Source: a virus. From it: a stretch of 64,000 nucleotides of DNA. The notes below the pieces were generated by a model. That model ran no database searches. It was not told where the DNA came from and saw only the letters and a program-made list of their open reading frames with translations. Shown piece by piece: positions 1,188 through 6,056 of this stretch; the first letter of the stretch is position 1; each line of letters begins with the position of its first letter. The DNA is taken from IMG/VR virus record IMGVR_UViG_3300046011_004498, positions 1 through 64,000 of that record; one strand, 5' to 3'. The translations under genes were made by a program, and so were the position numbers.

Positions 1188-1397
1188 TTACCAGCCAGCG
1201 ATGAAGAAGGCTACGATCAGGATGATCAAGCCAATGATGCACTCACAGGCAGCGCCATAGCACTGTTCAGCGGTAGGTTGTCTCGATCTAACCCAATGGT
1301 AGAAGGGACGAATGACGAGAAACAGACCGATGGGCATCAGTATGAGGCCAATAATGAGCTTGGCCCATTCGATGATGGAGATGATGGTGACGAGCAT
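1188..1397 (-). CDS. Small early membrane protein (2 TM)
   Basis: Two hydrophobic segments, SD, operon context. Confidence 0.65.
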   Translation of the reverse strand: MLVTIISIIEWAKLIIGLILMPIGLFLVIRPFYHWVRSRQPTAEQCYGAACECIIGLIILIVAFFIAGW

Positions 1398-1402
1398 GGT
1401 GT

Positions 1403-2937: not shown

Positions 2938-3273
2938 TTAATCCCATCTACCACTTTGACCGAACACTGTTCGCTGTACATACGCTGGGTTCTCAGTATC
3001 GAATTGCTCTACTCTACTGAAGTCTAAGACTTGGATGGTATTATCATCGTGTCTCTTCCATACTAATGCCCAAGATTCATCATCATTGGTTCCAGCTACA
3101 TCTACGCTGATGTTGTAGGGTGTAATGAAGTTAGTAGATACTAACTGTGAACCAGCACCATCACATTCATTGCATGTGATCTTGGATAAAAAGAGCATAT
3201 GGGTTTCTCCTCCCTCAGGAGTAATCATCCCTTTACCCTCACAGTTACTGCAAGTTACGGATACTATGCTCAT
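2938..3273 (-). CDS. DnaJ-type zinc-finger hypothetical protein
   Basis: CSNCEGKG and CNECDGAG (CxxCxGxG twice). Confidence 0.65.
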   Translation of the reverse strand: MSIVSVTCSNCEGKGMITPEGGETHMLFLSKITCNECDGAGSQLVSTNFITPYNISVDVAGTNDDESWALVWKRHDDNTIQVLDFSRVEQFDTENPAYVQRTVFGQSGRWD

Positions 3274-3274
3274 A

Positions 3275-3604
3275 TTAGCTCTCTTTATTAAGAGTGTTAT
3301 CGAGTGCTACTTCAACATCTTCGATAGACTGAAGAGTATCTCCAGCCCAGATTCCAATGCACTTGTAGAGGACAGTGGGTCTTGTCCTGCTAGTTGATGC
3401 AGGATCACGTATAGTAATGATTTCAAGATCATAATCCCTTAATTGTCTAATTATTCCCTTACGGTTTGTCTCCTTTAAACCAGGGAAGTTAATGGCTTCG
3501 CCTTGAACCAAGCGGTCATAATATCCCCTAAGTTTGCTACCTTCTCTAGGTTTGGACTGCTTAAGTTGATGGTTCCCTTTGATACTTCCTGCACTCAGAC
3601 GCAT
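3275..3604 (-). CDS. Basic hypothetical protein, possibly DNA-binding
   Basis: ORF in a tightly packed operon. Confidence 0.6.
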   Translation of the reverse strand: MRLSAGSIKGNHQLKQSKPREGSKLRGYYDRLVQGEAINFPGLKETNRKGIIRQLRDYDLEIITIRDPASTSRTRPTVLYKCIGIWAGDTLQSIEDVEVALDNTLNKES

Positions 3605-3792
3605 GGGGAGTCTTCATCAAAGTAGCTATCGAATGGTCCGCCTACGGCTTCTTCCCACTCATCATGTTCGTCTAAGTCTTTCATACGCTTGGTAAGCGCA
3701 GCCTTAAACATCTCAGGAGTTACATCCTCTCCTTTGGGATTATTGCTAAGTACGGAGAAAGCTACTGTGAATGCGTGGTTATATTGGCCCAT
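3595..3792 (-). CDS. Hypothetical protein
   Basis: ORF with GAGG SD inside a 12-bp stem. Confidence 0.65.
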   Translation of the reverse strand: MGQYNHAFTVAFSVLSNNPKGEDVTPEMFKAALTKRMKDLDEHDEWEEAVGGPFDSYFDEDSPCV

Positions 3793-3874
3793 AAGTTGCC
3801 TCGTCCCTTACTTAGTTGGTTGGGGGTTTATGTAATGTCCTGACGAGGCAACTGGGCTCTCGGTCACAGACCAT

Positions 3875-3926
3875 AAAAAGAGACCCCCTGCTTCAGTCCT
3901 TGTCGGGCTGAGCCTTGGGGGTCTCT
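3875..3926 (-). terminator. Extended terminator-like hairpin
   Basis: AGAGACCCCC/GGGGGUCUCU stem, inner GCUCAG/CUGAAGC helix, followed by a U tract. Confidence 0.6.
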
Positions 3927-4140
3927 CGTCCAGCCGCTAAGCTGGTTTGGACTGCTGCGGTTGACAGCTGGCTCGGCCTCGTCTCAGGCCAGAGCACCGT
4001 ATCATCCCCGGTGCCAAGGGCGCAGACCTTTTCGATGTCGCATGTCGTTGGGCTCTGTTTCAGTGCTTCACCCACTTGGCACACTAGACGTTCTCGTCTG
4101 TCAGTTAGACGGGGCCTTTATCAGGAACCACCTGATAATC
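3927..4140 (-). ncRNA. Putative multi-domain structured RNA
   Basis: Nested helices UGACAG/CUGUCA and GUGCCAAG/CUUGGCAC plus several hairpins; GC-rich; no credible CDS. Confidence 0.55.
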
Positions 4141-4148
4141 TTCCAAAC

Positions 4149-4207
4149 AAAAAGACCCCGACATAAACAGGGTAACACGTACTCCTGCTCCCTATGTCGG
4201 GGTCTTT
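4149..4207 (-). terminator. Extended terminator-like hairpin
   Basis: 15-bp AAAGACCCCGACAUA/UAUGUCGGGGUCUUU stem followed by U residues. Confidence 0.6.
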
Positions 4208-4298
4208 GCTCAATTGTAGGATACCAGTGAACGACTCACTTGGAACACTGTCTCCCCTACTTTCAATTGATGTCGGGCCAGTGAGGGCCACATCCAAT

Positions 4299-4330
4299 AA
4301 AAGAAACCCCAGTTTTCACTGGGGTTTCTT
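4299..4330 (-). terminator. Intrinsic terminator
   Basis: AAGAAACCCCAG/CUGGGGUUUCUU stem plus U tract. Confidence 0.7.
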
Positions 4331-4457
4331 CATAGAAGAGTATTGTTTTCGACAGATGGAGCTCAGATCGCATTGCTGAAGCCAGCCTTAGGCCAGTAGT
4401 CTTCGTATGCCGCTGTCATATATCCATAAGCTACTTAATAACTCTCTCTATTCAATA

Positions 4458-4533
4458 TGGTAGAAGAGATAGGACTTGAACCTATAACCTCCACGTTATG
4501 AGCGTGGGGCTCTAACCATTGAGCTACTCTTCT
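4458..4533 (-). tRNA. tRNA with CAU anticodon (Met elongator or Ile2)
   Basis: Cloverleaf: AGAAGAG acceptor, CCACG-CT-CAT-AA-CGTGG arm, TTCAA T-loop, encoded CCA. Confidence 0.92.
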
Positions 4534-4723
4534 ATAAAGAACTACAAAAGACGCCCCTTCCCGGAGTGCGTTTGAATGAAAACTCTTGTAGCTCTTCACT
4601 AAAGAGGCCCCAGACCTAAGCAGTTCTCAGCTAATGATCTAGGGCCTCTCGAAGGTTGGAGGGTCTTATTCTCCCGGCACCTTCCTGCCGATCCGAACTC
4701 CATGCAAGCATGGTGTCGAATAG

Positions 4724-4799
4724 TGGTGCTGTCTGTAGGGATCGAACCCACGACACCCAGTTTACAAAACTGGCGCTCTACCAACTGAGCTAAGACAGC
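4724..4799 (-). tRNA. tRNA-Thr(UGU)
   Basis: Cloverleaf, CCAGT-TT-TGT-AA-ACTGG arm, GTTCGA, CCA. Confidence 0.95.
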
Positions 4800-4804
4800 A
4801 ATAA

Positions 4805-4881
4805 TGGCGATCACATCAGGACTCGAACCTGAGACCCTCTGCTTAGAAGGCAGATGCTCTATCCAGCTGAGCTATGTGACC
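4805..4881 (-). tRNA. tRNA-Arg(UCU)
   Basis: Cloverleaf, TCTGC-CT-TCT-AA-GCAGA arm, GGTTCGAG, CCA. Confidence 0.95.
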
Positions 4882-4892
4882 AAATACAGAAG

Positions 4893-5011
4893 TGTTGGTT
4901 TAATGTTACTTGACGTTTCCCGCGTACACCCATCGGAAGAGCACAACGATTTGATCTAACTATCACAAGTTAGACAATAACATTACTTTGATTTCCTGCG
5001 TTAAACCAACA
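4893..5011 (-). ncRNA. Putative ~120-nt structured RNA between tRNA-Leu and tRNA-Arg
   Basis: Closing stem UGUUGGUUUAA/UUAAACCAACA, inner UAAUGUUA/UAACAUUA helix and two hairpins. Confidence 0.5.
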
Positions 5012-5045
5012 AATTGACAGGAGGAGGACTGGCTCTCCGATCTTT

Positions 5046-5131
5046 TGGTGCGAGCTAAGGGACTCGAACCCTTACACCATTACGATAACAGATTTTAAGT
5101 CTGGTGCGTCTACCAGTTCCGCCAAGCTCGC
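5046..5131 (-). tRNA. tRNA-Leu(UAA)
   Basis: Class II cloverleaf with long variable arm, CT-TAA-AA loop, CCA. Confidence 0.93.
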
Positions 5132-5266
5132 AATAGACTTTAATTCTTTGGAGGAGGGAACAGTCGCTCATTGCCCTACAACAGCGCCTGTTCCCTCAAC
5201 TCCTTATCCCCCCGCACACCCTCATAGAGTGCGAGGCGATTCTTCTGACCTATCTTTTTAGATTGG

Positions 5267-5566
5267 TCAATTAACTTTCGATCTCAAAGGCTTTCGATCT
5301 TCATCAGAATCTTCACCTTCTTCCTCCTCTTCAGGCTGAGACGGAACGACCGGGTCCAAGTCGGAGGGCGAAGCCCGTAGACGCTGGACCAAAGGGAGTT
5401 TCGGCCAGCCGGGATAACCATTGAACCAAAGTACGTTCTTCTTCCTGAACCAATGACGGTGTGTTGCTTGGGTCTGACCTGAATTCACGGTGGCTGGAAC
5501 CAACCGGGAAAAAGGAATCAACGATAAAGTCAACGCTGTTACGAAAACACCGACATCTTTGAGCAT
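5267..5566 (-). CDS. Hypothetical protein with N-terminal hydrophobic segment and acidic tail
   Basis: ORF with GGAG SD. Confidence 0.55.
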   Translation of the reverse strand: MLKDVGVFVTALTLSLIPFSRLVPATVNSGQTQATHRHWFRKKNVLWFNGYPGWPKLPLVQRLRASPSDLDPVVPSQPEEEEEGEDSDEDRKPLRSKVN

Positions 5567-5789
5567 GAGCTCTCTCCGTTATTGGAGACTGATTGTTGAT
5601 ACAGCTTGTCTTTCTTGTCTAGCACAAACTTCAATCATAGTTATATATAGTATAGACACACAAGACACACTTCCCCCGTTTCTCTTCTCTAGTAAATTAG
5701 AGAGAGTGGCCCTCGTCACATCCTGTGGACACGCGCCTTAAACAGACCTAGAGACCAAAGGGCAAGCCAAAAAAAGGAGCACCTTGCAA

Positions 5790-6056
5790 ATGTCTGATGA
5801 AGAACACGCTGGCCTTCCCGTCGCAGGATATCGCCCTCAGGGTGATGTCTACATTCGCACCGTTAACGCCAATAAAATTACCGAGGAAAAAATCCTCAGA
5901 ACAATCGACGATCTGCGAAATGAGAAAGCCCCTGATGGTGGTCTGATCCGCGTTGACCAGAGATGGCTGTCGATTGCCACGACCCAACTGGAACAGGGCT
6001 TCATGGCTCTGAACCGGGCAATCTTCCAACCGACAAGGCTTGAGGGAGAGCTCTAA
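5790..6056 (+). CDS. acb2: Acb2-like anti-CBASS cyclic-nucleotide sponge
   Basis: GYR near the N-terminus and RWLSIATTQLEQGFMALNRAIFQP at the C-terminus match the Acb2 pattern as recalled (GYR...[24 protein letters not shown]); ~90 aa; AAGGAG SD. Confidence 0.8.
   Translation: MSDEEHAGLPVAGYRPQGDVYIRTVNANKITEEKILRTIDDLRNEKAPDGGLIRVDQRWLSIATTQLEQGFMALNRAIFQPTRLEGEL

Follow-up and report, generated by a model that had tools for sequence, protein, structure and literature searches.

A rare, structured non-coding element behind the tRNA genes of an N4-like phage: a candidate small RNA

We identified a conserved, structured non-coding element, here called unit C, on the minus strand of an N4-like phage genome. 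Comparison of two diverged sequences supports this description. The element is rare and belongs to no described family. Unit C is quite probably a genuine conserved non-coding RNA. As to its role, we give a probability of about one half to a trans-acting structured small RNA whose three-way junction shows its loops and a junction strand to a partner, while the 3' hairpins and the terminator stabilise the molecule. As a gene, it is best read as a putative accessory small-RNA gene, i.e. a cassette that carries its own terminator and stands last in a tRNA block.

The window, i.e. the whole stretch of 64,000 nucleotides analysed here, comprises positions 1-64000 of a 72,847-base virus record. The two ends of this record overlap by 126 nt (4-129 equals 72722-72847, offset by 3), which indicates a closed assembly although the record is classed as linear. 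Since the phage encodes a 3,545-residue virion RNA polymerase, a large terminase, a portal protein and a DNA polymerase, we assign it to the N4-like phages (Schitoviridae); an rIIA-like protein is encoded as well. Its DNA was present in lake-water runs (freshwater), with no RNA data set among the 14 runs listed, and the nearest cultured phages, whose terminases are 65-71% identical, have Gram-negative bacteria as hosts. On the minus strand, the region from about 5800 to 3870 carries a 99-codon ORF followed by the genes for tRNA-Leu, Arg, Thr and Met, with unit C at the far end of this block on the same strand (Table 1).

Three non-coding units follow tRNA-Met (A, B and C), each with a terminal hairpin and a U-run. 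Their terminator tails are 82% alike over 17 nt, and the 3' arm and tail of the unit C terminator (GGGGUCUCUUUUUAUGG) recurs at the ends of units A and B. Repeats of the terminator tail, 17 nt long, flank the extra units of the window on both sides. Moreover, units B and C have a stretch of 25 nt in common (76% identity), which lies in the core of unit C and in both units is equally far from a GGCCC(C)G start; because of this likeness unit B may be a decayed paralogue. The 5' segment of unit B is also able to pair with the 3' arm of its own terminator. Tandem repeats were absent from 3500-5800. Beyond the block, a 12-bp inverted repeat with a 36-nt loop (3794-3853, minus strand) covers with its 3' arm the ribosome-binding region before the ATG at 3792 and may therefore occlude translation. 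A 111-codon ORF (2938-3273, minus strand) contains two CxxC pairs and resembled the DnaJ zinc-finger domain at a sub-threshold score (25.1 bits, cut-off 32.7), and the neighbouring 109- and 111-codon proteins had no relatives in IMG/VR.

Table 1. Positions of the features discussed in the text; numbers refer to the window unless the genome is named.
Feature	Position	Strand	Basis or remark
tRNA cluster: Leu(taa), Arg(tct), Thr(tgt), Met(cat)	4458-5131	minus	Rfam and ARAGORN
Unit A	4457-4300	minus	non-coding, terminator-ended
Unit B	4299-4146	minus	non-coding, terminator-ended
Unit C	3873-4145	minus	non-coding; begins behind the preceding terminator (putative 5' end) and includes its own terminator with U-run
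P1, 5' hairpin UUAUCAGG-UGGUU-CCUGAUAA	4118-4138 (4138-4131 / 4125-4118)	minus	sequence, fold
Putative three-way-junction domain, closed by P5 (CCCCG 4114-4110 / CGGGG 4010-4006)	4006-4114	minus	two-sequence comparison
P2 hairpin ACUGAC / GUC(U)AGU, loop AGACGAGAAC (4099-4090)	4083-4105	minus	two-sequence comparison
P4, GUGCCAAG (4082-4075) / CUUGGCAC (4018-4011)	4011-4082	minus	fold; weak counterpart in L004
P3 hairpin UGGG/CCCA, 18-nt loop	4049-4074	minus	two-sequence comparison
Shared motif GAUGAUAC (4005-3999), then variable short hairpins	3930-4005	minus	fold, alignment
Hairpin GGCCU/AGGCC	3990-3975	minus	fold
Hairpin GCUGU/GCAGC, CAACC loop	3968-3954	minus	fold
Hairpin CCAGC/GCUGG	3945-3930	minus	fold
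Intrinsic terminator: 11-bp outer stem, inner hairpin, U-run	3873-3927	minus	fold, z -6.2
Landmark GGTCTGTGACCGA: 4-5-bp stem, 3-nt loop	3860-3872	minus	directly after the unit C terminator
Hairpin motif, three copies	2741-2760, 854-872, 514-532 (positions 2753, 866, 526)	minus	within the window
Hairpin motif, fourth copy	genome 67961-67979 (67973)	minus	beyond the window; motif scan

A terminase search of IMG/VR gave 212 matches, and 80 loci were kept for comparison. One of these 80, L004, whose terminase is 85% identical to that of the window, carries a homologue of unit C at 378-45 (blastn and nhmmer; nhmmer E 1.3e-7). Between the two phages a 72-nt core is identical at 56 positions (78%), which is to be compared with 75-84% for three tRNAs and 78% for the terminase DNA, whereas the rest of unit C reaches 53% and the spacers 56-58%. 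In place of units A and B, which L004 does not share, this relative has an ORF of roughly 75 codons.

The comparison of the two sequences supports a 5' three-way junction formed by the putative stems P5, P2 and P3. Within the 32-nt block 4113-4082 only two substitutions separate the window from L004, and these are the two sides of one P2 pair, A-U being replaced by G-C (ACUGGC/GCC(U)AGU in L004), with the 10-nt loop invariant. P3 reads CUGC/GCAG in L004, three of its four pairs being changed on both sides, and its loop contains the conserved motif UGAAGnnCUGAAACnGA. Taken together, all 10 pairs of P2 and P3 are standard in both sequences and four are changed on both sides. When the partners were slid by one to three columns, pairing fell to 20-45% of the cells; the observed values were reached by 25 of 500 shuffles, with two rows only. 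As there are just two diverged sequences, we regard the P2/P3 covariation as suggestive and not as proven statistically. P5 is ACCCG/CGGGU in L004, again with one pair changed on both sides. Since MAFFT placed its 3' strand elsewhere, P5 depends on a manual re-alignment of the shared motif CGGGKGAUGAUAC, by which the window has about 37 nt more than L004, and on this alignment we infer P5 as the closing stem. With P5 included, the three stems comprise 15 pairs, each of them standard in the window as well as in L004. Five are changed on both sides, so that every one of the five changes within the three stems is compensated.

In the window the junction spans about 110 nt, compared with about 75 nt for its version in L004, and its strand GUGnnCCAA is invariant. 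Enforcing P2 and P3 in the folds cost about 5 kcal/mol in either sequence, and P5 emerged from these folds; in the minimum-energy fold of L004 an 8-bp extension of P5 was favoured over P3. Overall, covarying stems together with near-invariant loops support an RNA-like pattern of conservation. The G-U pairs in P1 and in the terminator of L004 read only in the minus sense, and together with the U-runs they fit an RNA read from the minus strand. An H-type pseudoknot (CGUCU/AGACG) over P2 would be possible but was set aside, as both of its strands are invariant and it overlaps P5. A hammerhead-like core as well as mimics of the sarcin-ricin loop and of the anticodon loop (UGAA motifs) were considered and set aside, as their flanking pairs are not conserved.

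A sequence-only reading of this region had described a multi-domain RNA of about 265 nt, more GC-rich than its surroundings, with a 5' hairpin, nested long-range helices and an extended terminator. All complementary segments it quoted are present on the minus strand. The GC excess was likewise found (0.585-0.60 over 3800-4099 compared with 0.40-0.48 in most flanking segments), as was the terminator, an 11-bp stem (3927-3917 / 3888-3878) followed by a U-run. This GC-rich stem and the subsequent UUUAU are those of an intrinsic (Rho-independent) terminator, which a simple scanner missed because its loop limit is 8 nt. The counterpart in L004 has a 13-bp stem (z -3.2). P1, the 5' hairpin of that reading, folds with a z of -3.0 on its own, and at its place L004 retains a hairpin of different sequence (UGAGGG/UCCUCA). 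For unit C as a whole the fold reached a z of -3.5, with none of 200 shuffles as good, compared with -1.2 for the 112-nt core alone (23 of 200 shuffles as good) and -1.0 for the whole unit of L004. It thus seems that the terminator and the 5' hairpin account for much of the folding signal.

The nested long-range helices were not upheld. The segments of the proposed outer helix, UGACAG (4103-4098) and CUGUCA (3967-3962), exist, but the helix is not conserved and clashes with P2; it cannot hold, since the segment proposed as its 5' arm forms the 5' strand of P2 and L004 offers no partner for its own version of this arm. The second helix, P4, is perfect and predicted in the window, and its counterpart in L004 is weak (GGUCCA/UGGUCC, five pairs with a U-U mismatch) and would cross P5. 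The 3' arm of P4 falls in the roughly 37 nt of the window that L004 does not have, and P4 may be specific to the lineage of the window. By our own arithmetic, several complements of 6 nt are expected by chance within 270 nt; together with the z values of the core and of L004, this means that the sequence alone does not establish a nested design. Further downstream, the GGCCU/AGGCC and CCAGC/GCUGG hairpins occur both in the sequence and in the minimum-energy fold, and the segments GCACCG and CGGUGC, which had been taken for a competing helix, are present in the sequence. In L004 the 3' half forms hairpins at similar places with other sequences, and in the MAFFT alignment it has about 53 nt there that the window is without; over unit C the indels between the two range from 2 to 53 nt. 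Thus, not the entire 265 nt form one conserved structure: the conserved part comprises about 75-110 nt, followed by a 3' half of variable short hairpins.

The same reading had not recognised a family, and none was found. Among the 4227 models of Rfam 15 only the four tRNAs pass the gathering threshold in the window, and even at E <= 10 nothing credible fell on unit C in either the window or L004; the best matches were c-di-GMP-I-GGC with 21.6 bits over the terminator (threshold 59) and bxd_4 with 12.5 bits. ARAGORN also called four tRNAs in the window, none of them in 3873-4145, and no tmRNA. The suggested complexity at the level of a ribozyme was not supported, as nothing points to a ribozyme: at E <= 10 unit C had no match to a self-cleaving Rfam family, including hammerhead, twister, pistol, hatchet and HDV-like families. 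On visual inspection, junction strands of 4, about 8 and 0-1 nt are also at odds with a hammerhead core. Nor did one of the short ORFs turn out to encode a conserved protein. None of the four ORFs overlapping unit C matched Pfam or PHROGs, the six-frame likeness to L004 extended over all frames and was confined to the conserved nucleotide core, and an overlapping ORF of 63 codons compares with about 19 codons in L004. In line with a trans-acting, base-pairing small RNA, unit C has its own terminator and loops conserved in both sequences. When four conserved segments were scanned for duplexes with the phage genome, their best matches did not exceed those of five shuffled queries each, apart from the antisense strand of unit C itself.

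Apart from the diverged homologue in L004 and a near-identical strain, the search for relatives of unit C found nothing further in the virus, metagenome and genome collections. Four exact-pattern designs run on IMG/VR, JGI metagenomes and GTDB genomes returned the L004 contig again and chance matches in coding regions or scattered taxa, among them 26 stretches in the GTDB genomes. A covariance model of the core (R1) scored 100 bits for the two true members and at most 20 bits for the other pattern-matched stretches. In a distant blastn search of 3600-4600 against 50,697 phage records only the tRNA parts matched. The near-identical strain (about 96-97%; 29 differing letters over 804 nt) was seen in three of four lake runs compared. 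It carries five substitutions in unit C, which all lie on the 3' side of 4012 in the RNA; the stretch 4012-4177 is free of changes, whereas units A and B (312 nt) have 13 substitutions and one 1-nt insertion. In the same three runs, a 199-nt stretch (3597-3797) with the 65-codon ORF 3595-3792 is replaced by 13 nt, which restore a start codon for the next ORF.

Seven close relatives have terminases 85-91% identical, and only L004 and L007 (87%) extend over the site of unit C; the others end, or have no match, before it. In L007, tRNA-Arg and a terminator are followed directly by the landmark GGTCTGTGACCGA without unit C, which is therefore an accessory and dispensable cassette, present at two of the three diverged sites examined. 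After its tRNA-Arg, L007 contains tRNA-arm-like fragments (1290-1400, minus strand) in which ARAGORN called no tRNA and which may be decayed tRNA genes. The landmark is identical in the window, in L004 (38-50) and in L007 (1081-1093), stands directly 3' of the last terminator of the tRNA block in all three phages and has a single copy in the window. A hairpin promoter of middle type is one possible role, a signal close to the end of the genome another, but the landmark is context and not part of the unit C RNA.

Being absent from L007, unit C might also have no function at all and represent decayed, duplicated modules of terminators and tRNA spacers that are conserved by recent common descent only. 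Its rarity across IMG/VR, JGI metagenomes and GTDB genomes with the four patterns agrees with this, as do the non-conservation of the neighbouring units A and B in L004 and the 25 nt that unit B has in common with unit C. We nevertheless consider decay unlikely, given that the core is as conserved as the tRNAs while the flanking spacers reach 53-58%, that all five changes in the three stems are compensated, and that the strain variant has no change in 4012-4177 compared with 13 substitutions and a 1-nt insertion in units A and B.

How unit C might be transcribed can be judged from its position. An N4-type hairpin motif (stem of 5-6 bp with an AC-TTC-GT centre) occurs in four minus-strand copies in the genome, with TGGG or TGAG a few bases past the centre, and these copies look like the N4-type virion-polymerase early promoters of the phage. 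They match the type of hairpin promoter described for LUZ7, with a stem of at least 4 bp, a conserved 3-nt loop and a start 13-14 nt downstream (PMC9163698). L007 has a similar motif, AGCGCC-TTC-GGCGCT. Unit C itself does not contain the motif, its loops being 5, 10 and 18 nt long; it lies upstream of the first early copy (2753), in the block that runs away from the late operon, the two diverging at 5567-5800. According to the available text of the LUZ7 study, middle-stage transcripts extend over the rightmost block of that phage, which corresponds to this one (PMC9163698). A sigma-70-like promoter was not found beside unit C, a simple scan of 3000-5500 giving one site at 3479-3450. The simplest source of the RNA would be read-through and processing from the tRNA transcript. 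In L004 the divergent intergenic region between tRNA block and late operon (5567-5800) is conserved far above the neighbouring spacers and includes an identical 23-nt run (5733-5755). At the head of the late operon, a 90-codon ORF (5784-6056, plus strand) matches the Acb2/Tad1 hairpin domain (Pfam PF24729, E 3e-15) and is likely a sponge for defence signalling nucleotides.

Under the preferred reading of a trans-acting small RNA, unit C would be transcribed together with the tRNAs or just behind them, and its long terminator hairpin would release or stabilise the RNA. The working part would be the 5' three-way junction, which would fix the arrangement of the loops AGACGAGAAC and UGAAGnnCUGAAACnGA and of the junction strand GUGnnCCAA. 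A partner might recognise this surface in trans, be it a protein of host or phage or an RNA of the host, and the variable 3' hairpins would act as a scaffold. Expression, co-transcription or processing, trans action and the partner are presumed. Few phage-encoded small RNAs are understood, and as a conserved, covarying RNA domain that is present or absent as a cassette beside phage tRNA genes, unit C offers a concrete candidate for a host-takeover or counter-defence RNA.

A different role for the same junction would be that of a sensor. In a cis-acting leader or attenuator of the riboswitch type, it would respond to a ligand or factor and set read-through into the downstream genes. We think this improbable, although the layout fits, with conservation in the 5' domain, variability in the 3' region and a strong terminator behind them, and same-strand genes follow unit C. 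The conserved junction would be the sensor domain, but it is linked neither to a ligand nor to a known class. Between junction and terminator there are 80-170 nt with several hairpins, no riboswitch family matched (Rfam, E <= 10), and a single duplex search, uninformative in itself, found no conserved alternative pairing between core and terminator. Furthermore, the downstream gene is inconstant, the 65-codon ORF being absent from the strain variant, and L007 has the same landmark after its terminator and then an ORF, but not unit C. For these last two reasons an attenuator is less likely than a trans-acting small RNA.

A bolder version of the trans-acting reading, which we likewise hold to be improbable, is that the junction represents a new RNA fold and that unit C is a mobile cassette of N4-like phages beside the tRNAs which neutralises a host factor as counter-defence. 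Possible targets would be a defence that is guided by RNA or senses it, in view of the octamer in loop 2 that resembles a crRNA tag, or a nuclease that attacks tRNAs. Phage tRNA genes are now linked to defence evasion, as far as the texts available to us describe it. If true, the cassette would be an RNA counter-defence travelling with phage tRNA genes.

Alternatively, the conserved letters might act as DNA, either as a hairpin promoter or, close to the end of the genome, as a signal for packaging, replication or recombination. Unit C does have the late operon on one side and the first early hairpin promoter (2753) on the other, and in this interval one expects the physical end of an N4-type genome; the L004 contig ends 37 nt past the neighbouring landmark. 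N4-like polymerases use DNA hairpins (PMC9163698), which speaks for such a signal, and one covarying pair in an inverted repeat would also suit a symmetric protein site. However, the early promoters that this phage has follow another motif, whose loop is 3 nt long compared with loops of 5-18 nt in unit C, and L007 without unit C still has the rest of the region. In P3 the pairing is kept while the sequence is replaced, as expected from a folded single strand and not from a sequence-specific site, and G-U pairs and a U-run terminator are strand-specific. A signal in DNA is therefore quite improbable.

The least probable reading, attractive but weak, is an RNA anti-CRISPR, in which a mimic of a solitary repeat would trap the Cas proteins of the host. 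Rfam includes CRISPR-repeat families, and no Rfam family of any kind fell on unit C at E <= 10; the 21-nt hairpin plus tag, with up to two mismatches, occurred in 0 of 401 genomes of one bacterial order. The idea stems from the octamer ACGAGAAC in loop 2, invariant in both phages, which equals the 8-nt 5' tag of staphylococcal type III-A crRNA in the available text of PMC9762709, from the existence of phage RNAs that mimic CRISPR repeats (PMC10651486, as far as its available text goes) and from the Acb2/Tad1-like anti-defence gene about 1.7 kb from unit C. Against it, identity over 8 nt can arise by chance, the covarying P2 stem includes bases after the 'tag' that would be spacer in a repeat, and the phages closest by terminase infect Gram-negative bacteria while the tag is staphylococcal.

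Several known systems resemble the small RNA proposed here in part. In phage T4, the tRNA precursor also yields the species I and II RNAs, and the transcript terminates after the species I gene, according to the available text of PMC2330249. As far as that account reaches, these are small non-coding RNAs at the far end of a phage tRNA cluster, like unit C, and they arise from the primary tRNA transcript, whereas co-transcription of unit C with the tRNAs is putative. T4 belongs to a different phage family, and no sequence likeness was found (blastn of 3600-4600 against the 50,697 phage records). To our knowledge, the function of the species I and II RNAs is still unknown.

Closer by phage type are the putative sRNA1-3 of the N4-like Pseudomonas phage LUZ7, which are shorter than 250 nt and, in the available text, of unknown function (PMC9163698). 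They share with unit C that they are small non-coding RNAs of an N4-like phage, but they were seen in transcripts whereas unit C is known from its sequence only. According to the same text their place also differs, being next to the virion polymerase gene and flanked by orf69 and orf70, while unit C follows the tRNAs. On LUZ7 25000-74901 the model R1 reached at most 15.3 bits, at another place than sRNA1-3. In the literature on small or non-coding RNAs of N4-like phages we found only these putative ones of LUZ7, and unit C is not described there.

Two broader classes are also comparable. With the terminator-ended, trans-acting small RNAs of bacteria and phages unit C has in common the compact form, an own terminator, conserved unpaired segments and a variable scaffold. 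It differs from them in that no promoter, chaperone site or target was identified, with no phage target above shuffles, in its length of about 265-330 nt, which exceeds most of them, and in its conserved junction in place of a linear seed. Three-way-junction RNAs such as riboswitch aptamers and the phi29 packaging RNA likewise combine a closing stem, two hairpins and conserved junction or loop bases. Unit C, unlike these, has no Rfam match at E <= 10 and no constant downstream gene, and in contrast to phi29 the phage of the window has a standard terminase. Beside these systems, unit C is a putative new and very narrow RNA family of a known general kind.
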